Origin: a bacterium
GTDB taxonomy: Bacteria; Methylomirabilota; Methylomirabilia; CAVQYV01
Assembly (NCBI GenBank): GCA_043800755.1
Contig: JAZDMQ010000114.1
Span: forward strand, 1-54,531
Length of the DNA: 54,531 bases
Direction: 5' to 3'
How positions within the stretch are numbered: the first letter of the stretch is position 1; every line of letters starts with the position of its first letter. A program made the translations under genes and the position numbers. The notes beneath the pieces were generated by a model that was given only the letters and a program-made list of their open reading frames with translations, made no database searches and had not been told where the DNA came from. Below are positions 10,133 through 37,575 of this stretch, in pieces.

Positions 10133-10139
10133 TCTATCC

Positions 10140-14705: not shown

Positions 14706-15061
14706 ATGAAGAGGGGGGTGACAAAGACTGGGCCGGGCCTGGTCATTTTACTGGTCCTCCTTTTCGTGATCCCGCAAGCGGGCAGGGCGGCCGAGGTGAT
14801 CCTCAAGGATTATGAGGATTACTTCATCGTCACCGACGCCTACAGCCCTTGGGAGCCCACCCGTTGGGGAAAGATCAAGAACATCAGCAGCTGGCATCGG
14901 GGCAATGTGACGATTATCGTCGAGCCCTATGGTGCAGAAGATCGGAAGATGGCCCCCCAAGTCATCGAGATTGGATTAATGGGCGTGAACGCGAGGAGGA
15001 TTTCCGCTGGCATCCCCCCCTGGGCATGAAGCATTACCGGTATCTCATCAAGGGAAATTGA
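14706..15061 (+). pseudogene. Small secreted protein (FxLYD-like), probably frameshifted near 14991
   Basis: Signal peptide, then GKIKNIS..NVTIIVEPY..IEIGLM. The natural-looking continuation EEDFRWHPPLGMKHYRYLIKGN* is in another frame ending at 15061; the in-frame ORF stops at 15029. Confidence 0.5.
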
Positions 15062-15087
15062 GAGGAGGGAGGCCAAGAGGTGCGGCC

Positions 15088-16422: not shown

Positions 16423-16438
16423 GTGGCAGGAGAAGCAG

Positions 16439-16933: not shown

Positions 16934-16957
16934 ACACTCGAGGTCAGGGGATTTGCT

Positions 16958-20442: not shown

Positions 20443-21603
20443 TTGAGGACCAGGGCACCCTTGAACCCGGAGAAGGTCGGCAGGAGTCTTCGTCTCTATT
20501 ACTTCTTCTACTTTTGTGCCATAGGGGTACTGGAGCCTTACCTCAACCTTTACTTCCGCCACCTGGGCTTCACCGGACGCCAGATCGGGCTGCTCTCGGG
20601 GATGCCCGGGCTAATCTATGCCACCTTTCCCTTTCTGTGGACTGCCTTCGCAGACGCCCGGCGCCTCCGCAACGGGGTCTTCCTGTTCAACACCTGGGCT
20701 AATTTCCTGGCCTTTTCACTGCTTCTCGCCACGGATCAATTCCGGGTCCTCTTCTTCTTAGTCCCGCTCTTGGCCGTCTTTCGCAGTCCCCTCATTCCCC
20801 TGCTCAATTCCTTTGCCCTGCAATACGGGAAGGAGAGGCAGCTCGATTTTGGGAGCTTCCGGGTCTGGGGATCCATCGGGTATATCGTAGCTGCGATCCT
20901 TTTAGGGAGACTGATCGACCTTCATGGCTCCCGCATTGCACTCTATGGGGCCCTGGTCGCCTTCCTCCTTTGTGGCCTGACCTGGGGGAGGGGGCTTCCC
21001 TGGAAGGCAGGGCAGTTTGGAGGCTTTAGGAGGGAATTTGGTGAGCTATTGAGGGATCGGAGGCTGCTCAAGTTCCTGCTGGTGGGCCACCTCACTTGGA
21101 TGAGCTGGGCAGCCTACAGCAACTTTTTCACCATCCACCTGGAGTCCCTGGGAATCAGCAAAGGCTTCGCAGGATGGGCCTGGGGATTGGGGGTGGTGAG
21201 CGAGGTGATCCTCATGTTCGGTTGGAGACGCATTTCCTCCCGGTTTCGCTCGCAAGACCTCTTGACCATGGCCCTGGCCCTCATCGCCGGGCGATGGTTC
21301 CTCTATTCCCTGGCGCATAGCCCGCTGGCGATTGTCCCCATCCAGCTCCTGCACGGGGTCACCTTCGCTACTTTTTACCTCTCCTCCATGGCCCTCTTGG
21401 ATGAGATGGTCCCTCCCGGCTTGAGGGCCACCAGCCAGGGGATGTACTCTGCCCTCACCTTTGGTCTGGGGAGTTTCCTGGGGGGACTGGGAAGCGGCTT
21501 TCTCTTCGATCAATTGGGGATGGCAGCCCTCTTTCGGATCAGCAGCCTGCTGGCGCTGCTCGCCCTCTGGTTATATGTAACCTCGCAGAGGGTCAGGGCT
21601 TGA
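20443..21603 (+). CDS. MFS transporter (MFS_1-like, nucleoside/sugar permease type)
   Basis: About 12 TM segments, FGSFRVWGSIGY, QLLHGVTF, RATSQG. Confidence 0.88.
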   Translation: MRTRAPLNPEKVGRSLRLYYFFYFCAIGVLEPYLNLYFRHLGFTGRQIGLLSGMPGLIYATFPFLWTAFADARRLRNGVFLFNTWANFLAFSLLLATDQFRVLFFLVPLLAVFRSPLIPLLNSFALQYGKERQLDFGSFRVWGSIGYIVAAILLGRLIDLHGSRIALYGALVAFLLCGLTWGRGLPWKAGQFGGFRREFGELLRDRRLLKFLLVGHLTWMSWAAYSNFFTIHLESLGISKGFAGWAWGLGVVSEVILMFGWRRISSRFRSQDLLTMALALIAGRWFLYSLAHSPLAIVPIQLLHGVTFATFYLSSMALLDEMVPPGLRATSQGMYSALTFGLGSFLGGLGSGFLFDQLGMAALFRISSLLALLALWLYVTSQRVRA

Positions 21604-22131
21604 GAGCCTTGAGGGCCGTGATGAGCCAAGAGAAGGAGATTCGAGCTGCGTTCGACTGGATCCGGAAGGCCTTCTTCACCTCCGGGGGGGCCTGCTCGAA
21701 TCGCTGCAGAAGGAGGGAGATCGTCTCCGGGCTGCAGCCCGAGGTCTTTACCCAGTCGCCGAACTCCAGATGGCTGAGATAGTTCGTCGAGAACTCCATG
21801 ATCTGGAAGCCTGCCCCCAAAACCATATCTCGCCACTGGGGCGGGGTGAAATTCTGTACATGAGAGGGATCACGGAGGCATTCGGTCTCATCGTGCCAGC
21901 GAGCTATGCCCAGATCATCGGGGGAAGAGGTATCGGCCAATAATAGGCATCCTCCCGGAACCAGAACCCACATCCGGTGGCCACGTCTAAGACATATTCG
22001 GTACCCTTGCATTCTGCCCATTGGACCATAAGCTGGAGCGTATCGCCCCGGGCGTGGGACCGGCTTCTTGCGTAAAGATGAGCCTGTCGGGAATACTGCT
22101 GACGGACAAGATCCTTAGAGTGGTCGCTCAT
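21593..22131 (-). pseudogene. Class I SAM-dependent methyltransferase, internally deleted and frameshifted
   Basis: N-part ..VLDVATGCGF in one frame; C-part VLVPGG..LRDPSHV.. in another. The central region normally between motif I and RVLxPGG is missing. Confidence 0.8.
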
Positions 22132-23603
22132 AGGGAGCCCCCAATGGCAGGAAGGAGAATGGAAAAGGTGCTTCCCTTCCCCTCCTCGCTCTTCACCTCA
22201 ATCTGACCAAAGTAAGAATTGACGATCTTTTTCACTATGGCGAGGCCCAGGCCAGTGCCCGCAATGAGCCGCGTACAATCGTTCTTCACCCGATAGAACT
22301 CATCGAAGATGTGGGGAAGTGCCTCAGGAGATATGCCGATACCCGTGTCCCTCACTTCGATTCGGATGAAGCCATCCTGCCTGCGAGCATCCAAATAGAC
22401 CTTTCCTCCCCTTACATTGTATTTGATGGCATTGTTCAAGAGATTGGTCAGGAGGCGTTCCATCTCCCGGCGGTCCGCGGAAATCAAAGGGAGGTCCTCG
22501 GCAATCGAGAGCTGCACTTGAATCTCGTTTTCTGCGGCCATTCCCTTAAGGAAATCAGCAATGTCCTGGATGACCGGCCTCAACTGGAGTGGCTCTCGCT
22601 TGGAGGTTGCAGAAGAGGATTCCAGACTGGAGATGTCCAGCAGATCCTTGATCAAGGCCAGCAGGGAGTATGCTCGCTCCTGGCATCTCTCTAACATCTT
22701 CCTCTCCTGCTCGATATCCTCTCCCAGGCTTCCGAGAATGACATCCACATAGCCGGAAATGGCTGCCAAAGGTGCCTTCAACTCGTGAGCCACCATGGTG
22801 ACGAAATCCGACTTGATGCGTTCCAATTCCTTGAGCTTGGTAATATCGCGCAGCACTGCAATAGCCCCGATCGGCTCTTCCTCGCCGGCCATGGCCGCAG
22901 CCACATTCACCATCAAGGTAGCCGGAAATTCCCCGGGGAGGCTGATCTCTTCCGTGAGAAAGGACTGAGGGGCATGCCGCTCTTTCAGCATACTGAGGAG
23001 GAGACGGCTGATGCGCTCATTTTGGATCCCCTCCTCCAGGGAGGCTCCGATCTGAGGGGTGGCCTGAAGTCGGAGCATGGAAAGGGCAGCCGGATTGAAG
23101 AGCACCAACTGCCCCTGTCGATTGGCTACCAGCACTCCGTCAGCCATGCATTGGATAATGGTTCGAGTTTGGCTTCTCTCTTGAGCGACCTCCAGCAGGC
23201 TTCTTTCCCTTTCTTGCCGGAGCTGGGCGGCCTCCAAGGCCAACCTTCGCCTTTCCAGTCCGCGATCCACGACCCGACGGAGCGCATCGGGGGTGAAGGG
23301 CTTGGGGATGTAGTCATAGGCGCCCTTCTTGATGGCCTCTACTGCGGTTTCGATAGTAGCGTAGCCGGTGATGATGATGGTTACCGTCTCGGGATCGATC
23401 CGGCGGATCTCCTCGAGTAACTCCAATCCACTGGGGCCGGGCATCTTGAGGTCAAGCAGGACCATATCATAATGGTCACCTCGGATGAAGGATTGGCCCT
23501 GGAATCCATCCTCCGCCATATCGGTCTGATGTCCTGCCTTGGTCAGGATTTCTTGGCAACCCACCCGGATGGAGCGTTCATCATCAACCACCAGGATTCT
23601 CAT
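22128..23603 (-). CDS. Hybrid sensor: receiver-PAS-HisKA-HATPase
   Basis: RILVVDD..LLDLKMPG..KPF receiver; PAS-like segment; AHELKAPL; NAIKYN; DTGIGI; GTGLGL. ATGA-coupled to the hydrogenase large subunit. Confidence 0.93.
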   Translation of the reverse strand: MRILVVDDERSIRVGCQEILTKAGHQTDMAEDGFQGQSFIRGDHYDMVLLDLKMPGPSGLELLEEIRRIDPETVTIIITGYATIETAVEAIKKGAYDYIPKPFTPDALRRVVDRGLERRRLALEAAQLRQERERSLLEVAQERSQTRTIIQCMADGVLVANRQGQLVLFNPAALSMLRLQATPQIGASLEEGIQNERISRLLLSMLKERHAPQSFLTEEISLPGEFPATLMVNVAAAMAGEEEPIGAIAVLRDITKLKELERIKSDFVTMVAHELKAPLAAISGYVDVILGSLGEDIEQERKMLERCQERAYSLLALIKDLLDISSLESSSATSKREPLQLRPVIQDIADFLKGMAAENEIQVQLSIAEDLPLISADRREMERLLTNLLNNAIKYNVRGGKVYLDARRQDGFIRIEVRDTGIGISPEALPHIFDEFYRVKNDCTRLIAGTGLGLAIVKKIVNSYFGQIEVKSEEGKGSTFSILLPAIGGSL

Positions 23604-24883
23604 AATGCTATCAGATGGACGGAGCAGGAGATGCAAGGATCGTAGGCCCGGGCGACCATCTCCAGTTTGAAGGCCATAGACTCTTGAGGCTCATTGGGCA
23701 GCCGTTCCACCGCAGCCCTGAAGTCCTTCTCCGCATTGGCCAGGTTCTGGGCGGTGGGGGTGATGATATCGGCCTCCAGGATGCGCCCTTGCTCATCGTA
23801 GCTGTAGCTGTGATAGAGGGTGCCTCGAGGCACCTCCACCGCACCCACTCCCCGGCCCGCCCTTGGCTTGATCTCGGGCAGCTTTTCCTCGCGGGGTCCC
23901 TCTCGGAGGAACTCCCCGATAATCCCCAGGGATCGCTCTAGGGAGAAGACGAGCTCAACCGCCTGGGCCAGGTTGTTATCGAAAATGTTATCGGAGGGGA
24001 GTTTCAGCCTCAATTTCTTCTGGGCCTCCTTTGCCCTCCCCTGGAGTTTCTTCTCATTGAGGATCAGGCGGGCCAACGCCCCGGTCATGTAAGGATTTCC
24101 GGAGAAGAGGCTGTGTTTGGCATGGGAATGGGAGACGGTCTTCTCGTTGGTCAGCTTCCGATAGTCGTGGATATCCAGGCGTTCCCCGGTGGAGACCAGG
24201 ATGTCTTTCCCAAAGTAGCCGTAGATCCCCCCGGGGGAATCGAGGGCGGCATAGATGGTCGGGGATTCAGCGTAGTTGGGATTCTCCAGGGAAGCGAACA
24301 GATCCACCGCCTTCATGCTATCGTCCAGTGCCTTCTTCAGCGGATCTTGCAGGGCAGCGAGGGCATCTGGTGCCGGCAACTTTCCAAATCCACCGACTAT
24401 GGCATTGCAGGGATGGATGGCCCTGCCCCCGAGAATCTCCCTCATGGTGTTTCCGAGCTTCTTAAGACCCAAGCCCATGACCACCTTGTCCTTATGGTCG
24501 GCGGCCATGTGGATGGCGCTGGGATATCCCAACAGGTCCGGGAGGACCAGGCAGAAGAGATGCAGGGAATGGCTTTCGATCATCTCCGCCTGTATCATCA
24601 GATCCCGCAATTTCTCGGTCTGAGGAGATACCTTCACCCCGAAGGCATCCTCCGTGGCCTGGACGGAGGCCAGGGTATGGCCAAAGCTGCAGATGGCGCA
24701 GATGCGGGAAGTAATGGATGCTATCTCGTCGTAGGGTCTTCCCTTGAGCAGGGGCTCGAAGAAACGAGAACCCTCAAAGATATCGAATTTGACCTCAGAG
24801 ACCTTGCCGTTCTGGATGCTCACGGTGATCCCACCGTGGCCTTCCACTCGACAAACTTCATCGACGACAATGGATTTTTTCAT
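23600..24883 (-). CDS. hydA: Group 3b [NiFe]-hydrogenase large (alpha) subunit
   Basis: RVEGHG, RICAIC (L1), DPCISCSVH (L2). Confidence 0.95.
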   Translation of the reverse strand: MKKSIVVDEVCRVEGHGGITVSIQNGKVSEVKFDIFEGSRFFEPLLKGRPYDEIASITSRICAICSFGHTLASVQATEDAFGVKVSPQTEKLRDLMIQAEMIESHSLHLFCLVLPDLLGYPSAIHMAADHKDKVVMGLGLKKLGNTMREILGGRAIHPCNAIVGGFGKLPAPDALAALQDPLKKALDDSMKAVDLFASLENPNYAESPTIYAALDSPGGIYGYFGKDILVSTGERLDIHDYRKLTNEKTVSHSHAKHSLFSGNPYMTGALARLILNEKKLQGRAKEAQKKLRLKLPSDNIFDNNLAQAVELVFSLERSLGIIGEFLREGPREEKLPEIKPRAGRGVGAVEVPRGTLYHSYSYDEQGRILEADIITPTAQNLANAEKDFRAAVERLPNEPQESMAFKLEMVARAYDPCISCSVHLIAL

Positions 24884-24886
24884 GGG

Positions 24887-25654
24887 CTACTCCTTGCCGA
24901 TAATGGATTGAATAACTTCTGCGGGAGCAGCGAATGCTCGGATTCGCTTTCGGATGTCCTCGATGGTGTATCCCTTCTCCCGAAAGAGACTGACCTCGGA
25001 GGCCACATTGGCCTCCTCCAGTGGTCCCCTACAGCCCTGACAGGGGACGCTGTGGCTGGGACAGAGGGCCTCACATCCGGCCACGGTGATGGGACCGAGG
25101 CAGAGCTGGTTCCTCTCCTGCAGAAGGCAGATGTTCTCCTTCATTTTGCATTCCGTGCATACCGCATAAGTGGGCAAAAGAGGGAGGTCCCCATGCAGCA
25201 GGGAGGCAACTGCCTTCAGGAAATGCCCCTTCTCCATGGGGCAGCCGGGGATATTGTAGTCTACCTTGACGAAGCTGCATAAGGGTTGGGCCGGGATGCT
25301 ATCGAAGTCTTTCCCTTCCGCCCCATATACCTGTTGCTTCAATTTCTCCCGGGGGATCTCATTGGCGGCTGCTGGCACTCCTCCCCACACCGCGCAGGTT
25401 CCAATGGCCACCAGAAGGGAGGCGCGATCTCGGATCCTCTTCAGATACTCCACATCGTGAGAATTGACCACGGAGCCCTCTACGAAGGCGATGTCCAAGG
25501 GGGTTTTCTGGTCATTACCGCTCACGGCCATGGGGAAGTCGATGATGTCGACCGCCCCGGCCAGTTCCAACAATTCATCCTCCAGATTCAGAATGGCGAG
25601 TTGATCCCCGGCGCAGGAGGTCAATCCATATACGCCGACCTTAGGTTTGCTCAT
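24887..25654 (-). CDS. hydD: Group 3b [NiFe]-hydrogenase small (delta) subunit
   Basis: LTSCAGD, GTCAVWGG, IPGCP, C-terminal Fe-S cysteines CTEC..CLGP..GC..C..CQGCRG. Confidence 0.93.
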   Translation of the reverse strand: MSKPKVGVYGLTSCAGDQLAILNLEDELLELAGAVDIIDFPMAVSGNDQKTPLDIAFVEGSVVNSHDVEYLKRIRDRASLLVAIGTCAVWGGVPAAANEIPREKLKQQVYGAEGKDFDSIPAQPLCSFVKVDYNIPGCPMEKGHFLKAVASLLHGDLPLLPTYAVCTECKMKENICLLQERNQLCLGPITVAGCEALCPSHSVPCQGCRGPLEEANVASEVSLFREKGYTIEDIRKRIRAFAAPAEVIQSIIGKE

Positions 25655-25675
25655 CTTGGCACACTCCGTTTCGCG

Positions 25676-26554
25676 CTAAATGATCTCGGGCATGTTGATC
25701 ACATCCCAATAGGTATAGATGGGACCATGGATGCAAGTGTATTTGTAGCCCACGCTGCAGTGTCCGCACTTGCCCACTCCACATTTCATCCTACGCTCTA
25801 AAGACATGAGGATCCGGTCCTTGGAGAAGTTTCGCTCCAAGAGCTTTTGCAGCACATATTTGAAGACCACCGGGGGACCGCAGATGGCGGCATAGGTGGT
25901 GCTGGCATCGATCTTGGCATGATCGAAGAGGGACGGGAGAAGGCCGACCTGCTGCTTCCAAGTCCCCGTATCATCCCTATCCACGGTCAAGAGACAATTC
26001 AGGTCCTGGCGGTTGGTGAGAGAGACCAGCTCATCTCGGTAGAGCATCTCGCCCGGGGATTTTGCCCCATACATCAGGGTGAGATCCTGGAAGAGAGAAC
26101 GATTATCCAGGGCATACCAGACAAGAGATCTCAAAGGAGCCATCCCCAGGCCCCCTGCGACGATCAAGAGGCTGTTGCCTTCCATCTCCTCGAGGGGAAA
26201 ACCGTTGCCGTAGGGTCCCCGGATTCCCACCAGGTCGTTGTGTTGAAGGCGATAGAGGGCATCAGTGAGCCTGCCCGTCCTGCGGACGCACAGCTCGATG
26301 ATCCCGGGACGGGTGGGGGAAGAGGAGATGGAAATGGGGGCCTCCCCGGTCCCCAGAACCGAAAGCATCACGAATTGTCCAGGTCGGTGAGTGAAACTCT
26401 TCGCCATCTCCTCGTCCAGGAAGCGAAACTGAAACAGATAGTTATCCTTCACCATGGGATGGATGCGAACGATCCGAGCCAGATGGGGTTGATAGGGATT
26501 CTTCTCTTTAGCGTAGTGCGCCATGCTCAACTGGGTGGTGTCCACTTTCTTCAC
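25676..26554 (-). CDS. Group 3b hydrogenase FAD/NAD(P)-binding (gamma) subunit
   Basis: PGQFVM, RGPYGNGF, GGLGMAP, CGPP, MKCGVGKCGHC..C [2Fe-2S]. Start could be GTG 26554 or 26545. Confidence 0.93.
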   Translation of the reverse strand: MKKVDTTQLSMAHYAKEKNPYQPHLARIVRIHPMVKDNYLFQFRFLDEEMAKSFTHRPGQFVMLSVLGTGEAPISISSSPTRPGIIELCVRRTGRLTDALYRLQHNDLVGIRGPYGNGFPLEEMEGNSLLIVAGGLGMAPLRSLVWYALDNRSLFQDLTLMYGAKSPGEMLYRDELVSLTNRQDLNCLLTVDRDDTGTWKQQVGLLPSLFDHAKIDASTTYAAICGPPVVFKYVLQKLLERNFSKDRILMSLERRMKCGVGKCGHCSVGYKYTCIHGPIYTYWDVINMPEII

Positions 26555-27566
26555 CTCTTATCTTTTTGATGACTTCCACAATGTCGATCTTAGCGGGACA
26601 AGCCACGATGCAACGGCCACATCCGACGCAGCTTGGCCGCCCATATTCGGCAACAAATCCGCGCTGTTTATGGTAATAGCGGAACTTCACCCGATCCGAC
26701 CGGTGTTCCCGGAAGTTCTCACCCCCCGCCACCAGGGCGTGTTCTTTGCGCAGACAGGAATCCCACATCTTCTTCCGCTGGCCGGACACCTGATCCAGAT
26801 TGAGCTCGTCGTACACATCATAGCAGTAGCAGGTGGGGCAGACCATGGAGCAGGACCCACAGCTCAAACACTTGTCGCCCAGGTCTTTCCAGGTAGAGCT
26901 TCCGTATTCCATTTCCATGATCCCTGCAAAGTCCCGCAACTCCACATCCAGCTTGAAGGCCTTGTCCCGCTCATTGGATCGTCGCTTATACTCCTCGATA
27001 TCGCCGCGAGTGACCTCCTGGAATAGGCCACCACTGGCCAAGACGATATCATCGCCCAGGCTCGTTCCTACCAGGGTGAGATAGGCGTCGCCGATATCGG
27101 AGAGGAAGAGGTCGAAACCGTCGTGTACGGTATCGGCTCGCATGGAATGACAGAAGCAATGTTCATCTGGGACGCAGTCGATGCCGATGATCCCGATCTG
27201 GCTGCGGCGGGTAAAGTAATAGTTGTCCACATACTTGCCGGCGAATACCAGATCCAGGATCTTCAGTGAATAGATGTCACAGGAATGGACTCCGAAGAGG
27301 ATTAGCTTCTGGTCCGCATCCTCGACGGTGGCTTCATATCCCTTGTCCATGGAGAACCGAAATAGGGTATCCACGGGCTTCAGGAAGTATTTCTTGGTCG
27401 GGAGGATGGTCCGGTTGTAATCCAAGGCCACCTCCGACCAGTTGGGGACTTTCCCGAAGGCGAATTGCTTATCCCCCTTCTTCAGTGGGGCATGGATCTC
27501 CCCGAACTTGTGCAGTACGAAGGTAAAGAAATCCATCTTTTCCTTGGGAAGCTTCAGATATTTCAT
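26508..27566 (-). CDS. Group 3b hydrogenase Fe-S (beta) subunit
   Basis: CLSCGSCSMVCPTCYC, WDSC, CVGCGRCIVACP. Confidence 0.93.
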   Translation of the reverse strand: MKYLKLPKEKMDFFTFVLHKFGEIHAPLKKGDKQFAFGKVPNWSEVALDYNRTILPTKKYFLKPVDTLFRFSMDKGYEATVEDADQKLILFGVHSCDIYSLKILDLVFAGKYVDNYYFTRRSQIGIIGIDCVPDEHCFCHSMRADTVHDGFDLFLSDIGDAYLTLVGTSLGDDIVLASGGLFQEVTRGDIEEYKRRSNERDKAFKLDVELRDFAGIMEMEYGSSTWKDLGDKCLSCGSCSMVCPTCYCYDVYDELNLDQVSGQRKKMWDSCLRKEHALVAGGENFREHRSDRVKFRYYHKQRGFVAEYGRPSCVGCGRCIVACPAKIDIVEVIKKIRGEESGHHPVEHGALR

Positions 27567-27660
27567 AGTATAGATTCACCTCCCACATAATTTTCACAGC
27601 ATCTGCCCCGCCCGGGGGCCTCGTTTGTCCGGAGAGAATCCCTAAGTGTTCGGCGAAGCC

Positions 27661-28044
27661 TTATTGCTTCTTCAATTGTCTTCGGATCTCTTCCAGAAGA
27701 CGCTCAGGCTTCACGGGTTTATCCAGGAAGACATCCACCGGAAGCCAGGTTTCATCGGGGGCAAAGTGAAAGGCCTTTTCCTCTTGGTGGATGGCGGTCA
27801 AAAGGACCAAGGGGATGGATTTGGTCCCCTCTTCGCTTCGCAGCTGCCTGGCGGTGTAAAAACCCTCTGTACGATCCGTCATCATCACATCCAGGACGAT
27901 GAGATCGGGCCTCTCCAGCTTGGCCTTCTCCAGGCCTTGCTTTCCATCATAGGCAGAGATCACCTCAAAGCCATTTTTCTTTAGAAGCGCAGTGTTGATT
28001 TCAATGAAGTCTGGGTCGTCATCAATGAGAAGGATCTTGGCCAT
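27661..28044 (-). CDS. Single-domain response regulator (receiver only)
   Basis: ILLIDDD, VLDVMM, LLTA, KP; no output domain. Confidence 0.92.
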   Translation of the reverse strand: MAKILLIDDDPDFIEINTALLKKNGFEVISAYDGKQGLEKAKLERPDLIVLDVMMTDRTEGFYTARQLRSEEGTKSIPLVLLTAIHQEEKAFHFAPDETWLPVDVFLDKPVKPERLLEEIRRQLKKQ

Positions 28045-28098
28045 TTTTTCTCTTTCTCCTTTCCGGTTCTGACGTTAGCAGTTTTCTCACTCCCCCCT

Positions 28099-30108
28099 TC
28101 AAGAGGGAACTCCATTCATCTCCGATTGAGGATTGCCCAAAAGGATTCGCAGCGTGAAGACGGTTCCCCTCCCTAATTCGCTCTTTACCTCAATATTTCC
28201 CTTGTGGGTCTTGATGATGCCGTACGCGATGGCAAGACCCAATCCAGTCCCCTTTCCCATCTCCTTGGTGGTGAAAAACGGAGTGAAGAGTTTGGGGAGG
28301 TTTTCTTCTGGTATCCCGCAACCGGTATCGGCGATGGAAACCTCAACCATGCGCTCCTCGGGAACATTTCTTGTCTTTACGGTCAGCTCACCTCCTCCGG
28401 GCATGGCCTCAATTGCATTGTTGATAATATTCTCGAAGGCCTGCATGAGTTGGTGGGGATCCACATAGACATAGGGGAGGGAGGGATCCAGTTCACCCTT
28501 TACACCAATACCTGAGAGCTTTCCCTCTTTGGAGGCGTATTCCAGGACATCCTCTATGATCTTGTTTATGGGATAATCGAGATAGTTGGGCCTGCTCTGT
28601 CGCGCGAAGTTCAGGAGTCCTCCTACGATCTCCTTACAGCGGTCCGCCTCGTTAACAATGGTTTCCACGCGAGGCAGTTGTGGATCATCTTTCTTGAGAT
28701 CCTCCAGGAGGAGATGGGCGTGAAGCAGGATGCCCCCCAAAGGATTATTGACCTGGTGAGCCACGCCGGCGGCCAGCTGTCCGATAGAGGCTAACCTCTC
28801 GGATTGCACCAACTGCTCTTGGCTCTTCTCCAGCTCCTGATAAGAATTTGCCAGCTTCTGATAGGTTTGTTGGAGCTGGTCAATGAGATAGGGCAGGCAC
28901 ATTTCCGCCTCGGCCAGACCCTGGAAGACAGCGACAGCCTTCTCTCGGCATGAACCGTATCCGCAGGCTCCGCAGTTCAGTTCATCCTCCTTGGAGAATT
29001 TGTTGATCTGCCTGAAGATGGTTTGGATTTCCTCTTCCGTGGGGATGGGAAGGTGAATGCTCTTGTTGGAGAAGCTCCGCCTGACATTGATATTACTGTA
29101 GCGCCTGATTTCGTTCCAACGGTCATCTTCGGCCTGACAGGCACAAGCCTCCTGTACATAGCTGGCAACCCTCTCTTTGCGGGCGAAGAAGCTCAAATCG
29201 TTCTCCATGCGAGGCCCATTGACGCAGCCCTCACAGAAGAGGATATCGATGAATTTCGCCCGCAGCATTCCTTCAGCCAGCTGTTGGAGTACCTCCAGCA
29301 CCCTATCCTTTCCCTCCACTACCAGGATATCATTGTCGGTGACATCGGCCTGGAGGGCGGCAGTCTTGAGCAAACCTCCCGATACGGGGAAGATACGGCC
29401 GACGCCAGGCTTCGGGCCATCAAAGCAGCCCTCCTCTTGGTCTTCGATGTGGATTCCTTGCATATCGAGCATCTCCTTTAGACCCCTGAAGGTCAAGGCG
29501 GCATCGACGATTCCCGCCACTTCCGGTTCGTTAATCTCTACCTTCTTGGCGATGCAAGGACCGATGAAAACGACTCGGGCATCAGGGTGGTAATGGTGTT
29601 TGATGGCCCTTCCCAAGGCAATCATGGGGGAAACGACGGGCGCCAGGTAAGGAATCAGTTGTGGGAGGTGCCTCTGGATGTAGCTGACCAAGGCCGGGCA
29701 GGGCGTGGTGAGGAAGATGGGCATTTCATTGTTCTTGAAGATCTTACTATATTCTTGGCTGACCAGTTCCGCCCCGAAGGCCACCTCCATGACCTGAGAA
29801 AAACCAAGTTTGCGCACGGCCGCGACGATCTGAAGGGGCTTTACCTGGTAGAAGGCGGCAGGAAAAGAAGGGGCCAGGCAGGCAATGACTGGCTGCTTCC
29901 CAGCCAGCAACTCCTCCACCATCCCGATGGAGGACTCCACCTGTTTAGCATTCTGGGAACAGACCTTTACGCAATTGCCGCAGGCGATGCATCTCTCCTC
30001 AATGACTGTGGCCTGCCCCTCCACCACTTTGATCGCCTTGGCGGGGCAATTCCGGACACAAGTATAGCACCGCCTGCACTTCGCGCCTATTGTGCTGACG
30101 ACGGCCAT
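28099..30108 (-). CDS. Sensory-type (group C-like) [FeFe]-hydrogenase domain fused to a histidine kinase
   Basis: 2x[4Fe-4S] N-terminus; H-cluster motif variants TTPCP, GPCIAKKVE, DILFCEGCVNG; FeS domain NCGACGYGSC..C; HisKA AHQVNNPL; HATPase NAIEAM, DTGCGI, GTGLGL. Confidence 0.9.
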   Translation of the reverse strand: MAVVSTIGAKCRRCYTCVRNCPAKAIKVVEGQATVIEERCIACGNCVKVCSQNAKQVESSIGMVEELLAGKQPVIACLAPSFPAAFYQVKPLQIVAAVRKLGFSQVMEVAFGAELVSQEYSKIFKNNEMPIFLTTPCPALVSYIQRHLPQLIPYLAPVVSPMIALGRAIKHHYHPDARVVFIGPCIAKKVEINEPEVAGIVDAALTFRGLKEMLDMQGIHIEDQEEGCFDGPKPGVGRIFPVSGGLLKTAALQADVTDNDILVVEGKDRVLEVLQQLAEGMLRAKFIDILFCEGCVNGPRMENDLSFFARKERVASYVQEACACQAEDDRWNEIRRYSNINVRRSFSNKSIHLPIPTEEEIQTIFRQINKFSKEDELNCGACGYGSCREKAVAVFQGLAEAEMCLPYLIDQLQQTYQKLANSYQELEKSQEQLVQSERLASIGQLAAGVAHQVNNPLGGILLHAHLLLEDLKKDDPQLPRVETIVNEADRCKEIVGGLLNFARQSRPNYLDYPINKIIEDVLEYASKEGKLSGIGVKGELDPSLPYVYVDPHQLMQAFENIINNAIEAMPGGGELTVKTRNVPEERMVEVSIADTGCGIPEENLPKLFTPFFTTKEMGKGTGLGLAIAYGIIKTHKGNIEVKSELGRGTVFTLRILLGNPQSEMNGVPS

Positions 30109-30150
30109 GGATTCCTCTGATTTGCTATTTGATTGGCCCTACTCCGAGGG

Positions 30151-30168
30151 TTGTTAAAAACTTCACAA
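30151..30168. promoter_or_regulatory. Putative Rex operator
   Basis: TTGTTAA-AAAC-TTCACAA versus consensus TTGTGAA-N4-TTCACAA (1 mismatch), about 40 bp upstream of the sensor start. Confidence 0.7.
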
Positions 30169-30675
30169 GATAGGGCTCCCAAAAAAATCGATCCCGTCGG
30201 TAAATCTGTCCGATCGTGACCGAAATCAGACCTCTGCACTTTAGCTCTATTGCAAGAAGAAGACCTCTCAGAAGACCGGCAGAGGAATCTTGAGAAGGCT
30301 CAGCTTGAGATCAGAGAGAGATGCGCGGGAATCTAAGAAATGGGACTGTTCTATCCCTCCCCCGCAAGCCATGCGGGCCTTCAAATGCAACTACCCCCTC
30401 ATATTCTTTCGTTAACCCAAAAGGCTTGCTGGCGGGAACGCGCTCGCTTTGCGCGAACAATAGCCTTTTACCTCTAAACGATCTGATTGTCAAGGACTTT
30501 TGCCCCGGTAAGGAAGTAGCGCAGGCCCTCATTAGATCGGTTTTCCCTTGACAAAAGAAGGATGATGGGATACTGGACAATCGAACGTAGGTCCCCCAGT
30601 AGCTTCTGCGGGGGTTGCACTCGTCGTGCTTTTGCCATAAGGCGAAGTTTTGGTAGGTCCAAAGGAGATGTGGAA

Positions 30676-31356
30676 ATGAGGAAAGTGATTAACCGTGCGC
30701 CGTCCCCCGACAAAAAGATCTTGGAGCAATACCGCAGTTTCTTGAAGTTGTTCAGCCCCACCTGTGTCATCGCCGACTCTATGGAGCGATCAGGGATTAT
30801 GCGGAGTGAAATCAAGCCCATAGATTCAACTGATTGCAGGATCTGCGGGCCTGCCCTCACCGTTCGGCTGTTCCCGGGGGATCTGGTAGATTGTCTGGAT
30901 GCTTTGGGGGTAGCACGGGAGGGTGATCTCATTGTAGTGGATGCCCGCGGGGAGACCGAGACATCCATCTGGGGAGGACTAATGGCAGGGCTTTGCAAAC
31001 AGAAAGGAGTAGTCGGAGCGGTGATCGACGGGGCCTGCAGGGACATCGACGAGGTCAAGTATCATAAGTTCCCGCTCTTCTCCCGGGCGATCGTTCCACG
31101 ATCCACTCACACACCTTATTCCAAGCGGATGGAGCCCATTGAAATCAATGTTCCCATCGAATGCGGAGGCATTATTGTTCACCCGGGGGATATCGTGGTG
31201 GCGGACGAGGTGGGGGTGGTAGTCGTTCCCTGGTCGGAGGCCGCGCAGGTGGCTGAAAAGGCCAAGGATCTCTTTGAGAAAGAAGAGTTAACCCGGCGCC
31301 GGATAGCGGAGGGGAAAACCTTGGAGCAAATACTGGAGGAGTTCGGAAGGCTATAG
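30676..31356 (+). CDS. RraA-like / HMG aldolase family protein
   Basis: ICGPALTV, IWGGLM, VIDGACRD, VHPGDIVVADEVGVVVVP; AAAGGAG RBS. Confidence 0.88.
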   Translation: MRKVINRAPSPDKKILEQYRSFLKLFSPTCVIADSMERSGIMRSEIKPIDSTDCRICGPALTVRLFPGDLVDCLDALGVAREGDLIVVDARGETETSIWGGLMAGLCKQKGVVGAVIDGACRDIDEVKYHKFPLFSRAIVPRSTHTPYSKRMEPIEINVPIECGGIIVHPGDIVVADEVGVVVVPWSEAAQVAEKAKDLFEKEELTRRRIAEGKTLEQILEEFGRL

Positions 31357-31439
31357 AGGTGAGCCGGGCTCCTCACTCTGAGCCCCGGCCTCAAGCATTT
31401 AGAAGATGCCACCCTCCCCCTTCACTCTGGAAAGTTTCC

Positions 31440-31469
31440 TTGACCGCAAAAGGGAAATTCATCTATACT
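31440..31469 (+). promoter_or_regulatory. Putative sigma70 promoter for hydE-hydG-hydF
   Basis: TTGACC-18 bp-TATACT, downstream of a GC hairpin (about 31361-31392) after the RraA-like gene. Confidence 0.4.
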
Positions 31470-31552
31470 TGACTCGGAATTACTTGTATTTTCTGCGCTT
31501 CGAAGTTTCGCCCAGTATGCTGGGGAAATTCCGCATTGTAGGGGACTGGGTT

Positions 31553-32683
31553 GTGGGTACAAAGATCAGCAAAGCTGAAATACTGGACTGGCTTCGGCAA
31601 GAAGATGATCGCTACCTGCAGGATCTCTGGCAAAAGGCGGATGCGATCCGCCGGGAGAACGTGGGCGATGCGGTGCACCTGCGCGGACTGATCGAAATCT
31701 CCAATCATTGCGTGCGCCAATGCCAATACTGCGGCTTGAGGGTCGACCACCGGGGCCTGGCACGCTACCGGATGACCGAAGCGGAGATCATGGAGTGTGT
31801 TCGTCAGGCGGTGGACTATGGCTACGGCACCGTGGTCCTGCAATCGGGCGAGGATTATGGCATCCGAACAGAATGGATGGCCAGCGTCGTTCGGCGGATC
31901 AAGGCCGAAACGCCTCTCGCAGTGACCCTCAGCCTCGGCGAACGTCCGGATACCGATCTGATTGCGTGGCGCGAGGCCGGGGCGGATCGATACCTGCTGA
32001 GGTTTGAAACCTCCGACTTGCAGCTATATGAGAAGATACACCCTTCACTGCCGGGCAGGTGGTCGGACCGGATCGCCATTCTGCGCCGGCTGGCAGAGCT
32101 CGGCTACGAGGTGGGAAGCGGGGTGATGATCGGGATCCCGGAACAGACCTACGAAAGTCTGGCCCACGATATCTGGCTATTTGAGGTCCTCTATCTGGAT
32201 ATGATAGGGGTAGGACCCTACATCCCTCACCCGCGGACGCCGCTGGGACAGGCCGCGATTAAGCTCGGCGCGCCGCAGGATAAACAGGTTCCCAATTCCG
32301 AGCTCATGACCTATAAGGTCGTAGCCCTGGCGAGGCTGGCCTGCCCGGGGGCCAACATTCCCAGTACTACCGCCCTTGCTACCCTGAATCGGGAAGAAGG
32401 TCGGGAGCTGGGTCTCGTGCGGGGAGCGAACGTGGTTATGCCCAATTTGACCCCACCTCAGTACCGGGTGAGTTATGAGATTTACCCCGCCAAGGCATGT
32501 ATCTTTGAGACGGCCGCCGACTGCGATGCCTGTGTCAAGCGCCGGATCATCTCCCTCGGGAGAACGGTCGGTAGCGGGCGGGGAGATTCTCCCAATCGGA
32601 GCCGACGCATTAAGCGTGCTGAGAGGAAGTTGGAAGACGTAGTGGAGGACACGCCGTGTCTGCCTTGCCAGCCCCAGCTTTGA
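31553..32683 (+). CDS. hydE: [FeFe]-hydrogenase maturase HydE (radical SAM)
   Basis: RGLIEISNHCVRQCQYC, LQSGED, RYLLRFET, GANVVMPN, YEIYP; probable GTG start. Confidence 0.93.
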   Translation: MGTKISKAEILDWLRQEDDRYLQDLWQKADAIRRENVGDAVHLRGLIEISNHCVRQCQYCGLRVDHRGLARYRMTEAEIMECVRQAVDYGYGTVVLQSGEDYGIRTEWMASVVRRIKAETPLAVTLSLGERPDTDLIAWREAGADRYLLRFETSDLQLYEKIHPSLPGRWSDRIAILRRLAELGYEVGSGVMIGIPEQTYESLAHDIWLFEVLYLDMIGVGPYIPHPRTPLGQAAIKLGAPQDKQVPNSELMTYKVVALARLACPGANIPSTTALATLNREEGRELGLVRGANVVMPNLTPPQYRVSYEIYPAKACIFETAADCDACVKRRIISLGRTVGSGRGDSPNRSRRIKRAERKLEDVVEDTPCLPCQPQL

Positions 32684-34080
32684 GCCAAGGGGCAACTGAT
32701 TTCATAGACGATGGTTACCTGGCGAAGCTGCTGGCGAACTCTCGGCCAGACGCCGCGCACCTTCGCAACATCGTCGCCAAGAGTTTAGCCAAGGAGGCGC
32801 TCAGCGTGGAGGAGACGGCCGTGCTCGTCACCATCGAAGACCCAGATATGGTGGAAGAGACCTTTGAGGCCGCCCGGAAACTCAAGCGGGATGTCTATGG
32901 AAACCGCATCGTGCTTTTCGCTCCTCTTTACATCGGTAACCATTGCCTCAATGACTGTGCCTATTGCGGGTTCCGGCGATCCAATCCGCAGGCACTCCGC
33001 CGCACACTTTCGGAGGCGGAGATTCGTATACAGGTCGAGGCCCTCGAGAGCAAGGGCCACAAGCGGCTCATTCTCGTCTTCGGCGAACATCCGGATTATG
33101 ACGCCGACTTCATTGCCCGCTGCGCCCAAATTGCATATGAGACGAAGGTTGGTCGCGGGGAGATTCGCCGGGTGAATATTAATGCTGCTCCGCTGGACCA
33201 CGAAGGCTATCGCAAGGTGAAGAAAGCGGGCATTGGTACCTATCAGATTTTCCAGGAAACCTACCACCACGAGACCTATAGGCGGATGCACCCGAAGAAC
33301 ACGCGCAAGGGCGACTACCTCTACCGGCTGGATGGCCTGGGTAGGGCTATTGAGGCCGGCTGCGATGATGTGGGCATTGGTGCCCTCTTCGGCTTGTACG
33401 ACTGGCGGTTCGAGGTCCTCGGCCTGGTTTCCCACGCCCTGAACTTGCAGCAGCGCTTCGGCATTGGTCCCCACACCATCAGCTTTCCACGGCTTCAACC
33501 GGCTTGCGGCGTGAAGTTCGACTGGCAGTTCTTGGCGAACGATTATGACTTTATGCGGATCATCGCCGCGTTGCGCCTTGCTGTTCCCTATACCGGATTG
33601 ATCCTTACGGCGAGAGAAAGCCCGGCGCTTCGCAGGGAGGTAATGGCCTTCGGGGTCTCCCAGATCGACGCGGGCAGCCGGATCGAGATTGGGGGATACA
33701 CCGAAGTCGGCGACGCACAGATTATGGAAAGAGAACAGTTCGCCCTCGGTGACCTCCGCTCTCTGGACCAAGTCATTCGAGAGCTGTCGGGGGACGGTTA
33801 TATTCCGAGCTTCTGCACCTCTTGCTATCGCCTGGGACGCACCGGTGAGCACTTCATGGAATTCTCTATCCCTGGATTCATCAAGAACTTCTGCACTCCT
33901 AATGCCCTGACCACGCTGATGGAGTATTTAGTGGATTATGCCTCGCCGGAGACCCGCGCGACCGGAGAGAAGGTGATCGGGAATGAGATCGCCAAGTTGA
34001 AAGATGGGCCGATGAAGGTGAGTCTGCTCCAGCAGCTAAGTCGGATCAGGGAGACCGAGGAAAGGGATTTTTGCTATTAG
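32656..34080 (+). CDS. hydG: [FeFe]-hydrogenase maturase HydG (radical SAM)
   Basis: FAPLYIGNHCLNDCAYC, GPHTISFPR, C-terminal Cx2Cx22C (CTSC...NFC). Confidence 0.95.
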   Translation: MSALPAPALSQGATDFIDDGYLAKLLANSRPDAAHLRNIVAKSLAKEALSVEETAVLVTIEDPDMVEETFEAARKLKRDVYGNRIVLFAPLYIGNHCLNDCAYCGFRRSNPQALRRTLSEAEIRIQVEALESKGHKRLILVFGEHPDYDADFIARCAQIAYETKVGRGEIRRVNINAAPLDHEGYRKVKKAGIGTYQIFQETYHHETYRRMHPKNTRKGDYLYRLDGLGRAIEAGCDDVGIGALFGLYDWRFEVLGLVSHALNLQQRFGIGPHTISFPRLQPACGVKFDWQFLANDYDFMRIIAALRLAVPYTGLILTARESPALRREVMAFGVSQIDAGSRIEIGGYTEVGDAQIMEREQFALGDLRSLDQVIRELSGDGYIPSFCTSCYRLGRTGEHFMEFSIPGFIKNFCTPNALTTLMEYLVDYASPETRATGEKVIGNEIAKLKDGPMKVSLLQQLSRIRETEERDFCY

Positions 34081-34144
34081 TAGAAAGGCATTCATCTCGC
34101 TCGCCCTCTGCCCAGGTGACCGTTTAGCTTAACTGGTGCTGCAC

Positions 34145-34373
34145 ATGAGCCAATATCGAACCGAGAGGGATTTGCTGGGCGAGTTCCAGGTCCCGGCCGA
34201 TGCTTGGGTACCAGGCCGCACAGGAAATCGTCGTGGTCGCATCCGCCAAGGGCAAGAGCATTCGCCAGATGGTCATTGAACGTGGAATGCTCACCGGTGA
34301 GCAGTTCGATGCCCTCGTCTCCCCGGAAAGCGTCACCCGACTGGGACATCCACGGAAGCGGGGTTATTCTTGA
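34145..34373 (+). pseudogene. aspA: Aspartate ammonia-lyase remnant with a large internal deletion
   Basis: MSQYRTERDLLGEFQVPADA (aspartase N-terminus) joined out of frame at about 34203 to LGYQAAQEIVVVASAKGKSIRQMVIERGMLTGEQFDALVSPE.. (aspartase C-terminus). The stop overlaps the hydF TTG. Confidence 0.85.
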
Positions 34374-35614
34374 GAGATACACCCAAAGGGTTCAGGTTGC
34401 ACATCGCCCTGTTCGGCAGGCGAAACGTCGGCAAATCATCGCTGCTAAATGCGCTCACTCGTCAGGTCGTCTCCATCGTGTCCGAGGTGGCCGGAACTAC
34501 CACCGACCCGGTGGAAAAACCGATGGAGTTGCTTCCGATTGGACCAGTACTGTTCATTGATACCGCGGGTATTGACGATGTCGGTGCCTTGGGCGAGATG
34601 CGCGTTCAGCGGACGCGGCAGATTTTCGACCGCGCCGACGTGGGCATCGTAGTGGCCGAATCCGGACTATGGGGCGAGTTCGAGGAAAGCATTCTCAACG
34701 AACTTCTGGACCGGAAGATCCCTCCGATCGTGGTATTCAACAAGGTGGACCTGGCCAGGCCTGATCCCCAACGGATCGAGCAGCTTCAATCCCGCAGTAT
34801 TCGATATGTTCAGACGGTGGCCTGCCACGGCGAGGGCCTCTTCGACCTCCGCGAGGCGCTCATCCGCACCGCCCCCGAGGAATTCATTAATACTCCCTCG
34901 ATCCTCGGTGACCTGGTTCCTGCCGGTGAACTGGTCGTGCTGGTTGTGCCCATCGATCTTGAGGCCCCCAAGGGGCGGCTGATCCTGCCGCAAGTGCAGT
35001 GTATTCGGGATATTCTCGACACCGACGCCTACTGCATGGTGGTCAAGGAACGCGAGCTGCGCGATGCCCTCGATCGACTCAATCGCCCTCCAGCACTGGT
35101 CGTTACCGATTCGCAGGGATTCTTGAAGGTGGCCGGGGATATACCCCGAGAAATCCCTCTCACCTCGTTCTCCATTCTGTTCGCGCGCTACAAGGGGGAC
35201 CTGAACGAACTTGTCCGGGGGGCGGTGGCGATTGAGAAACTTGGTCCCGGCGACCGAATCCTGATTGCAGAGGCCTGCACCCATCATCCCATCGGGGATG
35301 ACATTGGGACGGTGAAGATTCCCCGCTGGCTCAGTCAGTACATCGGGGGAAAGCTGGAGTTCGACAAGGTGGGCGGCCACGACTTCCCGCAAGACCTGAG
35401 CTCTTACCAACTGGTAGTGCACTGTGGGGCTTGCATGTGGAACCGGCGTGAGACGATCTCTAGGATCATACGCTGCCGGAAGGCCGGGGTGCCGATCACC
35501 AATTATGGCCTGACGATTGCCTACAGTCTGGGGATATTCGAGCGCGCCCTTTCTCCGTTTCCAGCGGCCATGGAAGTCTATCGCCAGTTTCAGCAGTCTG
35601 GCAGACCCGGTTGA
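34370..35614 (+). CDS. hydF: [FeFe]-hydrogenase maturase GTPase HydF
   Basis: GRRNVGKS, GTTTDPV, DTAG, NKVD, APKGRLILPQ, CTHH..HCGAC. Confidence 0.96.
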   Translation: MRDTPKGFRLHIALFGRRNVGKSSLLNALTRQVVSIVSEVAGTTTDPVEKPMELLPIGPVLFIDTAGIDDVGALGEMRVQRTRQIFDRADVGIVVAESGLWGEFEESILNELLDRKIPPIVVFNKVDLARPDPQRIEQLQSRSIRYVQTVACHGEGLFDLREALIRTAPEEFINTPSILGDLVPAGELVVLVVPIDLEAPKGRLILPQVQCIRDILDTDAYCMVVKERELRDALDRLNRPPALVVTDSQGFLKVAGDIPREIPLTSFSILFARYKGDLNELVRGAVAIEKLGPGDRILIAEACTHHPIGDDIGTVKIPRWLSQYIGGKLEFDKVGGHDFPQDLSSYQLVVHCGACMWNRRETISRIIRCRKAGVPITNYGLTIAYSLGIFERALSPFPAAMEVYRQFQQSGRPG

Positions 35615-35766
35615 TCCTTATCACCTGGTACCCCCGGCGAGACCACTTGGTGCTGATCGCTTCGGTCAGAATATGAATCTGAATGATGAACGCAGCCCGC
35701 AGCCTTCCGGGAGCTACTTCAATTTCTTTCCAGTCGAGAATCACCCCTTGCAGAGGTCATGAAACG

Positions 35767-36075
35767 TTGAGGAAGCAAGATAGAGAGAAGGGGCCAAACC
35801 AGAGGGAAGAAGGGAACGACCTGAGACTGATAGAGGTTCATCGGGCGGCCAATGATGAGGAGGCCCTGGTAATCAAGGGTCTGCTGGAGAGCCAGGGGGT
35901 TCATTGCATCTTGCGCTCCCGGGTGGTTCACGCCGTGCACCCCTTCAGCATGGACGGACTGGGAGAGGTGAAGATCATGGTGGCAGAGGCCGATGCGCCG
36001 GAGGCCAGGGCCCTCCTTTCGACCTCATGGAAACGAGTTCCTCGTCGTCTCTCGAAGGGTAAGAGGTTTCGATAG
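35767..36075 (+). CDS. DUF2007-like putative signal-transducing protein
   Basis: EALVIKGLLESQGV..GEVKIMVAEADAPEARALL; start uncertain. Confidence 0.7.
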   Translation: MRKQDREKGPNQREEGNDLRLIEVHRAANDEEALVIKGLLESQGVHCILRSRVVHAVHPFSMDGLGEVKIMVAEADAPEARALLSTSWKRVPRRLSKGKRFR

Positions 36076-36088
36076 AAGGAGGATTGGA

Positions 36089-37369: not shown

Positions 37370-37575
37370 GTAGTTGACTTTGCTCTATTTTTTTCTTCCC
37401 AAACGGGTTGGATGATGTTAGGCTGAATTAGAGTTTTTTAGGTGCCACGGGCACAATTTGGGCACCGCAATAAAAACACAATAGCGGAAAGATTTGCAAG
37501 AGGGAAGTGAGCGAATGGCATGGCCGCTCCGAGACGTGGATTTGAACCCCTCTTTCGGCAGGAGAGCAGGTGATG

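Follow-up and report, generated by a model that had tools for sequence, protein, structure and literature searches.

Histidine-kinase-fused putative sensory [FeFe]-hydrogenases are an already described class of protein. HydDB recognizes a group C subtype termed 'histidine kinase-linked (putative)' (PMC5037454), and such proteins have been published from Hydrogenedentota as 'BfuT'/C3 (PMC11406978), from Elusimicrobia, Ignavibacterium and Caldithrix (10.1101/765248), and from Ca. Lernaella (PMC9324843); kinase-linked forms are placed in C1 in one scheme (PMC5037454) and kinase-fused forms in C3 in others (PMC11406978, PMC9324843). In the arrangement described for Elusimicrobia, Hydrogenedentota and Ca. 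Lernaella (10.1101/765248, PMC11406978, PMC9324843), a three-gene cassette encoding the sensor kinase, a lone receiver and a second kinase with receiver (REC) and PAS domains follows rex-hydC-hydB-hydA, so that the sensor stands beside the hydABC genes of a trimeric group A3 enzyme, often with the maturase genes hydEGF adjacent and with Rex involved. Here, we compare these systems with a locus in a 54,531-nt stretch of DNA (contig JAZDMQ010000114.1; hereafter, the window) from the 2.43 Mb draft genome (G000) of a sediment bacterium. The locus has the same sensor domain order and the same cassette, but neither the locus nor the genome contains hydABC, and the second and third cassette genes are separated by four genes for a group 3b [NiFe]-hydrogenase. 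We consider the chance somewhat better than even that a portable phosphorelay cassette of three genes has been built around a resident operon for an NAD(P)-linked 3b enzyme, forming one transcription unit behind a Rex operator.

The locus consists of two divergent runs with housekeeping genes on both flanks. On the minus strand (22128–30108), seven genes follow one another with short gaps or overlaps, in the order sensor kinase (669 aa, 28099–30108), receiver-only response regulator (127 aa, 27661–28044; PF00072, 71.1 bits), [NiFe] beta (26508–27566), gamma (25676–26554), delta (24887–25654) and alpha (23600–24883) subunits, and a REC-PAS-HisKA-HATPase hybrid kinase (22128–23603) assigned by its Pfam domains and homologues. 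The plus-strand run is headed by an RraA-like aldolase family gene (30562–31356; PF03737, 148.4 bits), which is followed by hydE (31406–32683), hydG (32656–34080) and hydF (34370–35614). Positions 22915–37500 are also spanned, in the same layout, by a 16.5 kb contig obtained from a DNA run. Pfam and NCBIfam searches bear out each gene named in a previous, sequence-only reading of this stretch, from the sensor kinase, receiver, 3b subunits and REC-PAS kinase to hydE, hydG and hydF; the divergent run described there also stands, with the addition of the RraA-like gene between the promoter region and hydE, which had gone unmentioned. The translational coupling proposed between alpha and the hybrid kinase holds because the kinase ATG at 23603, a likelier start than the listed TTG at 23636, overlaps the alpha stop codon as ATGA. 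Two other starts are worth a remark: the true start of gamma may be further downstream, since the listed GTG overlaps the end of beta, and the HydE start as listed may be about 50 codons too early.

The four [NiFe] genes form a complete group 3b subunit set in the order beta-gamma-delta-alpha, and their best NCBIfam matches are the corresponding subunits of the Pyrococcus-type sulfhydrogenase. The beta subunit (Fer4_22, AsrA-like) scores 335.7 bits against ShyB and 330.9 bits against HydB, gamma combines an FAD/NAD(P)-binding with an Fe-S domain (Pfam/NCBIfam), and delta is the small subunit (HydD, 212.4 bits). The large subunit, alpha, retains both Ni-Fe binding CxxC motifs (RICAICSFGH and DPCISCSVH) and matches the sulfhydrogenase HydA (384.6 bits) and ShyA (375 bits) models far above VhuA (166.7 bits) and FrhA (137.6 bits). 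All four genes, including beta with both of its models, score below the Pyrococcus-specific equivalog cut-offs (e.g., 384.6 versus 880 bits for alpha); by subunit set and nearest models, we assign the enzyme to the group 3b type and predict it to be NAD(P)-coupled (sulfhydrogenase type).

The sensor contains Fer4, Fe_hyd_lg_C (PF02906, 182.8 bits) and FeS (PF04060) domains, with HisKA (53 bits) and HATPase_c (97.8 bits) fused within the same protein. Two ferredoxin-type CxxCxxCxxxC motifs are found at residues 11 and 40, the H-domain carries the motifs TTPCP (L1), GPCIAKK (L2) and LFCEGCVNGP (L3), and a Cx2Cx4Cx16C motif (residues 379–404) precedes HisKA (His451) and the HATPase. When aligned with 22 relatives (53–94% identity), the four H-cluster cysteines and the lysine (Cys137, Cys185, Lys188, Cys292, Cys295) are invariant (22/22), as are Cys379, Cys382, Cys387, Cys404 and the phospho-accepting His451. 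When aligned with three group A HydA sequences, the sensor displays one cysteine in L1 versus two, with the proton-relay cysteine missing, GPC versus MPC in L2, and leucine versus methionine two residues before the first cysteine of L3. Catalytic enzymes have two adjacent cysteines in L1 (TSCCP); we note separately that the HydA accompanying the usual cassettes at L089:17498–19228, L057:7738–9450 and L009:8084–9844, group A by score (NF040763, 819 bits in the sister genus of the same family, G001), reads TSCSPGW, with serine at the second position.

Groups C and D of the [FeFe]-hydrogenases are marked off at these same L1, L2 and L3 positions, and an N-terminal pair of [4Fe-4S] clusters and a C-terminal Cx2Cx4Cx16C motif are defined for sensory forms (PMC8163306). 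The window sensor shares both of these features with TmHydS of Thermotoga maritima (group C) and TamHydS of Thermoanaerobacter mathranii (group D), and the proton-relay cysteine is lost in all three (PMC8163306). At the two methionine positions, it resembles one characterized protein each, having Met353 replaced by glycine as in TmHydS and Met497 by leucine as in TamHydS (PMC8163306 and our alignment). TmHydS has a PAS domain and TamHydS no signalling domain, whereas a fused histidine kinase is found only in the window sensor. The H-domain thus described looks to be of the sensor type (group C/D type) and appears able to bind its cofactor: the four H-cluster cysteines and the lysine are all kept. 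The architecture itself is by no means rare. Among 8000 candidates scored, 7467 proteins match at E ≤ 0.001, and all of those listed (120/120) share it; given these matches and the HydDB subtype, the kinase-fused sensor type must be regarded as known and very common.

To place the locus among its relatives, we surveyed 80 genome and 80 metagenome loci, excluding the final 34 of the metagenome loci, whose matches were confined to the kinase half or to short fragments; flank counts refer to 120 sequences with a full-length sensor, the window and G001 included. HydA-like genes are found in the flanks of 95 of these, NuoF-like genes in 89, NuoE-like genes in 84, Rex in 52 and HydG in 44. In 42 of the 66 genome loci with enough upstream sequence, a same-strand H-domain gene has its end no more than 1.5 kb upstream of the sensor, in agreement with the previous statement that group C sensors usually neighbour [FeFe] enzymes. 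A receiver follows the sensor in 44/71 loci, with homologues of the window receiver starting 39–92 nt after the sensor gene in L091, L072, L011, L097, L098, L022 and L057. The REC-PAS kinase has full-length homologues (alignments of 400 aa or more) in 34 of 127 other sequences, and 24 of the 25 listed (37.9–51.8% identity) begin 409–804 nt after the sensor gene. Because the receiver and the kinase recur after the sensor in this manner, we consider the three genes to be one conserved cassette. The usual order, seen in G001, L057 and L009, is rex-hydC-hydB-hydA, then the cassette, then hydE-hydG-aspA-hydF. An aspA gene (aspartate ammonia-lyase) lies between hydG and hydF in 10/120 related loci, and in the window this place is a 290-nt gap (34081–34369). 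No counterpart of the RraA-like gene is found in the other sensor loci, the only one of the 120 with RraA being the window itself.

In the window, the radical-SAM maturases HydE (TIGR03956, 309.5 bits; cut-off, 254.6) and HydG (TIGR03955, 467.4 bits; cut-off, 312.15) and the GTPase scaffold HydF (TIGR03918, 557 bits; cut-off, 325.55) all exceed their curated equivalog cut-offs, and what we take to be their signature motifs are intact, namely CX3CX2C at residue 102 of HydE, CX3CX2C at 97 and CX2CX22C at 387 of HydG, and a P-loop at 16 and CxH...HCxxC at 303 of HydF. A PF02906 profile search of the draft genome nevertheless returns a single match, the sensor, and a tblastn search of the genome with the G001 HydA yields only the sensor and NuoG-like N-terminal domains at formate-dehydrogenase-type loci, which are linked to NuoEF. 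The previous observation that the window holds no catalytic [FeFe]-hydrogenase therefore extends to the whole draft genome. [NiFe] large subunits (PF00374) are encoded in three places only: C142 (group 1 NiFeSe type), C135 (the 3b enzyme) and C1 (group 4-like). None of these matches is a group 2b regulatory enzyme of the HoxBC/HupUV type, and the locus is not a 2b member. As a side observation, the group 4-like (Hyf/NuoD-type) large-subunit frame at C1:8852–9022 contains an in-frame TGA, C142 carries a NiFeSe-type periplasmic hydrogenase, and SelA is encoded in the window itself (47102–48649); selenocysteine is probably used in the hydrogenases of this organism.

Because the draft consists of 166 contigs, a catalytic [FeFe] gene could lie in an assembly gap, in which case the maturases would serve that enzyme and the sensor would be its ordinary companion. 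The frequency of HydA-like genes near such sensors (95/120) and the presence of hydABC next to the sensor in the sister genus both lean this way. We nonetheless find the explanation highly improbable. Marker completeness is 100% with a contamination of 0.06, the place upstream of the sensor where hydA usually lies is sequenced and holds the promoter region and the divergent genes, the 16.5 kb contig has the same layout, and three Clostridia genomes described below share the sensor-only state.

A different possibility is that the H-domain protein senses redox state or a gas (CO, O2) through its four or five Fe-S clusters, rather than H2, and acts as a controller of redox poise. The two N-terminal clusters and the C-terminal [4Fe-4S] motif, present besides the H-cluster site, would be compatible with such a role, and some relatives do adjoin redox enzymes other than hydrogenases. 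We hold this to be rather improbable, since every H-cluster ligand is invariant across phyla, hydEGF is retained in a genome with no other client for it, and an unused 2Fe site would fit poorly with the occurrence of hydG in the flanks of 44/120 sensor loci.

Comparison with relatives indicates how the 3b genes came to lie within the cassette. Among 40 relatives of the same class, a PF02906 match or a close alpha homologue is found only in G001. The G001 3b operon is orthologous to that of the window (79–89% identity; beta 79%, gamma 87%, delta 89%) and has the neighbours seen on the left flank of the window (a methyltransferase, an MFS transporter, DUF2062, LigT, an unnamed gene and CinA), with no sensor, REC or kinase gene at the operon. 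Beside alpha, G001 has an intact methyltransferase gene (296 aa). In the window, this gene is degraded into two out-of-frame pieces (21596–22140, minus strand) that match residues 34–92 and 171–293 of the G001 orthologue, with residues 1–33 and 93–170 missing, and that abut the 3' edge of the kinase gene. From a gene that is intact in G001 and broken beside the kinase in the window, we conclude that the kinase gene was inserted. The G001 sensor is only 45% identical to that of the window and is found on another contig, in the usual rex-hydCBA-linked cassette adjoining hydABC.

In quick maximum-likelihood trees (midpoint root, with the Shimodaira–Hasegawa-like approximate likelihood-ratio test, SH-aLRT, as the only support), the G001 sensor and HydF pair with sequences of an Acidobacteriota metagenome-assembled genome (MAG) (SH-aLRT 100 and 99). 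In the sensor tree, the window sensor instead pairs with that of L091 (100), and this pair falls, with weak support (84 and 81), into a cluster of nine to ten sequences, in most of which the upstream H-domain gene is absent. The sister-genus comparison and the trees together lead us to conclude that the two genera acquired their [FeFe] modules separately, and comparative sequence evidence indicates that the linkage to 3b genes is derived and arose in the lineage of the window. We also considered that hydEGF was inherited together with G001, reading 72–78% identity as orthology; this proved wrong, as HydF is equally close to that of Planctomycetota and other loci, and the G001 HydF and sensor have their partners in the Acidobacteriota MAG. 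The G001 hydG is itself in two pieces with overlapping open reading frames (ORFs) (L090:7098–8523; residues 1–124 and 126–474, family match 122–469), which may be due to a frameshift or a sequencing error.

L091 provides an independent view of the arrangement. This 8.3 kb metagenome contig from an 87% relative (84–93% protein identity) encodes the sensor, REC, beta, gamma, delta and the start of alpha in this order, and ends before the kinase junction. As the same order recurs there, the gene arrangement of the window is not due to chance.

A candidate Rex operator (30151–30168) precedes the sensor ATG by 43–60 nt. No other site in the 2.43 Mb matches TTGTKAANNNNTTMACAA perfectly; this form of the consensus allows for a T/A half-site variant, which was reportedly described by Ravcheev et al. 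in 2012. To the published consensus TTGTGAANNNNTTCACAA, the operator has 1 mismatch. The consensus is given for Rex in PMC5317091 and PMC6391272, where hydrogenase genes of the [NiFe] as well as the [FeFe] class are documented to be under Rex control, with Caldicellulosiruptor as a case of both. The site is found at the same position in L091, and none is found within two mismatches in the 3b region of G001. With this operator and a Rex homologue on contig C16 (tblastn), the locus counts as a putative member of the Rex regulon. Elsewhere in the genome, a single Rex-like site (C118:4347–4364) comes within 1 mismatch of the degenerate consensus; it lies 146 nt upstream of a 431-aa ORF (4510–5805).

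Signals of transcription within the locus are less telling. A scan of positions 21500–36200 for sigma-70 promoters and terminators is uninformative (8 promoter-like sites versus 7.0 expected, and 10 terminator-like sites versus 14.0 expected), and no terminator-like site is predicted on the coding strand from the sensor through REC to beta. Metatranscriptome contigs from two libraries of one study cover 30/30 bins (X8) and 28/30 bins (X20), and one X8 contig bridges beta and REC. These being contigs, with possible DNA carry-over and a flat X8 depth, we do not take them as evidence of transcription or co-transcription.

From these observations, we infer that the sensor binds H2, takes part in phosphotransfer and controls the [NiFe] genes. 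In the mechanism we propose, HydE, HydG and HydF would build the 2Fe subcluster for the sensor alone, H2 would reduce the sensor H-cluster, and electrons would move on to the C-terminal [4Fe-4S] cluster. Because Cys404, the last cysteine of that cluster motif, lies at the start of a predicted helix running to His451, 47 residues further on, we propose that the redox state of this cluster sets kinase activity. Phosphate would then go to the lone receiver, to the receiver domain of the REC-PAS kinase, or to both, and this kinase would relay the signal to a regulator encoded elsewhere, so that the expression or activity of the 3b enzyme would be matched to H2, while Rex would add an NADH/NAD+ signal at the promoter. 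The logic resembles that of the group 2b systems HoxBC-HoxJ-HoxA and HupUV-HupT-HupR, in which a hydrogenase-like H2 sensor acts through a kinase on [NiFe] genes (HydDB table). It differs in that the window sensor is an [FeFe]-type protein, unrelated to those [NiFe] sensors, carries its kinase within the same polypeptide, depends on HydEFG instead of the Hyp machinery, and has no DNA-binding regulator in its locus.

A number of points weigh against this reading. The weakest link is that no DNA-binding or other output domain is found in the locus by Pfam or NCBIfam, and for this reason the module is not 'self-contained', as had been proposed from the sequence; that proposal had also overlooked the Rex operator as an additional input. 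A search for sigma-54 promoters (TGGCAC-N5-TTGC, at most 2 mismatches) yields 42 matches versus 42.67 expected, with none in the relevant intergenic regions, and none of the nine sigma-54 activators encoded elsewhere in the genome is assignable to the cassette. The linkage is rare, with a [NiFe] large subunit in the flanks of only 3/120 sensor loci (the window, L008 and L043), which L091 joins as a fourth on the strength of its genes for beta, gamma and delta; L043 has a 3c-like large-subunit fragment, convergent and at the contig end, and is too weak to count. Of the conserved linkage sought by the sequence-only reading, the sensor-REC-3b order is present in L091, but no sensor accompanies the 3b operon of the sister genus, and hydEGF is not found within 2.9 kb upstream of the L091 sensor. 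In Syntrophorhabdaceae loci, the cassette adjoins formate-dehydrogenase- and Hdr-like genes, so it may report general redox state rather than H2. The structure model of the sensor (mean pLDDT, the predicted local distance difference test, 68.6) draws one long helix over residues 398–470, but pLDDT falls below 50 at residues 397–459, exactly the helix between cluster and histidine, making this a weak hint. To our knowledge, no kinase-fused [FeFe] sensor has been characterized biochemically. In addition, doubt has been expressed that some group C1 proteins retain H-cluster motifs (PMC11406978). The earlier idea that the maturases are kept for an H2 sensor of a [NiFe] enzyme is accordingly upheld in its genomic premises, with a sole H-domain, HydE, HydG and HydF above their cut-offs, conserved H-cluster ligands and embedded 3b genes, and is curtailed by a linkage confined to one lineage. 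Among the Syntrophorhabdaceae MAGs, L022 and L056 encode the closest homologues of the REC-PAS kinase (52% and 48%); their cassettes lie beside HdrA/GltD-like genes, in L056 also NuoF- and formate-dehydrogenase-like genes, with no hydrogenase beside them.

The lack of an output domain in the locus is also the first point in favour of supposing that the cassette is co-transcribed with the 3b genes but has its real targets elsewhere, as a general H2 or redox system whose position at the 3b operon is an accident of insertion. Possible targets are at hand in the periplasmic NiFeSe-type hydrogenase, the Hyf-like complex and the formate dehydrogenases: the genome holds at least two other hydrogenase loci (C142, C1), formate-dehydrogenase-type loci and the nine sigma-54 activators, and related cassettes adjoin different redox modules. 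We think this explanation unlikely. Two separate junctions bracket the 3b genes, with the sensor and REC upstream and the ATGA-overlapping kinase downstream; L091 keeps the order from the sensor to the start of alpha; usual cassettes are likewise in one run with their presumed target hydrogenase; and Clostridia MAGs also have the sensor in one run with a cytoplasmic [NiFe] enzyme.

A physical rather than regulatory connection is conceivable as well, in which the H-domain kinase would be a slow hydrogenase exchanging electrons with 3b beta and gamma. Archaeal [FeFe]-[NiFe] hybrids (groups F and G; PMC11216029) resemble the window in having both hydrogenase classes in one locus, and the sensor and 3b genes are co-operonic here. 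The archaeal hybrids are, however, described as catalytic fusions or complexes (PMC11216029), whereas the link we propose is regulatory and the [FeFe] part is fused to a kinase. We give a hybrid complex next to no credence, as the protein ends in a complete HisKA-HATPase with the conserved histidine, and lacks the proton-relay cysteine and both methionines of catalytic enzymes, and as the orthologous 3b enzyme of G001 stands alone.

The Clostridia offer a parallel to the regulatory linkage proposed for the window. The sensor of G041 (locus L008) is 54% identical to that of the window and is its nearest relative in the genome collection. In G041, a single run encodes HdrA/GltD-like and MvhD-like proteins, 3c-type small and large subunits and a maturation protease, and continues with the three maturases (HydG, HydE, HydF), the sensor kinase and then a sigma-54 response regulator; in G042, genes for the sensor, HydG and the [NiFe] large subunit share one contig and keep this order. 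In three Clostridia MAG species of unstated completeness (G041, G042 and G051), PF02906 matches twice per genome, each time with a domain of the sensor type (163–185 bits), while catalytic-type H-domains in neighbouring genomes score about 300–345 bits. G046 and G047, likewise of unstated completeness, also have only sensor-type PF02906 matches, but HydG was not found and they are not used as examples. Tentatively, and with confidence somewhat short of even, we suggest that [FeFe] H-domain proteins fused to kinases act as portable H2 sensors, and that cytoplasmic [NiFe] enzymes have come under their control on more than one occasion, 3b in the window and 3c/Hdr-linked in a Clostridia lineage, with HydEFG kept solely for the sensor cofactor. 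We also asked whether the lone REC is a cut-down sigma-54 regulator; with only 22% identity to the receiver of the L008 regulator, this is unsupported. Downstream of the L008 sensor (14455–18045) are NuoE-like and NuoF-like genes and a gene for a 427-aa protein that matches only the N-terminal Fe-S part of HydA, without the H-domain; this set looks like a HydABC-like module minus its catalytic domain.

Two further features of the window lie outside the hydrogenase region. Its left end, with a guanine-plus-cytosine fraction of 0.53 versus about 0.60, contains an AAA_21 (AbiEii/OLD-like ATPase) and DUF4276 gene pair and a PemK/MazF-like toxin gene (231–1993 and 2907–3308). Between lon and ftsK, a 480-aa ORF (8783–10225, minus strand) overlaps the listed ftsK start and matches no Pfam family at E ≤ 1e-6; possibly it is not a genuine gene.

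Against the published record, the parts and the cassette are known, while the literature appears not to describe the target, a sensor-only genome or the re-wiring in evolution. In full-text searches on sensory [FeFe]-hydrogenases, we did not find a description of a kinase-fused sensor within a [NiFe] operon, although supplementary tables (PMC11406978 and the HydDB papers) may list cases, nor of a regulatory [FeFe]-to-[NiFe] link or of sensor-only maturases. A Cloacimonadota genus is tabulated, without comment, as having no hydrogenases besides a group 4g [NiFe] enzyme and a group C1 [FeFe] protein, and the neighbours of 32 unexplained group C1 genes are tabulated in the supplement of PMC11406978.

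The sister-genus comparison points to a regulatory cassette that moved by gene transfer and was re-wired onto a resident operon. If the proposed reading is true, hydEFG in a genome would not imply [FeFe]-based H2 turnover; surveys may take hydEFG or PF02906 as a sign of [FeFe]-based H2 production, and would misread such genomes where the only client is a sensor. The locus combines a single sensor and its fused kinase with two candidate receivers and one neighbouring target operon, free of a catalytic [FeFe] background, and is a clean natural test system for the long-open role of group C [FeFe] 'hydrogenases' in H2 signalling. If the wiring is functional, it would constitute a second, evolutionarily unrelated H2-sensing route to [NiFe] control besides HoxBC/HupUV.

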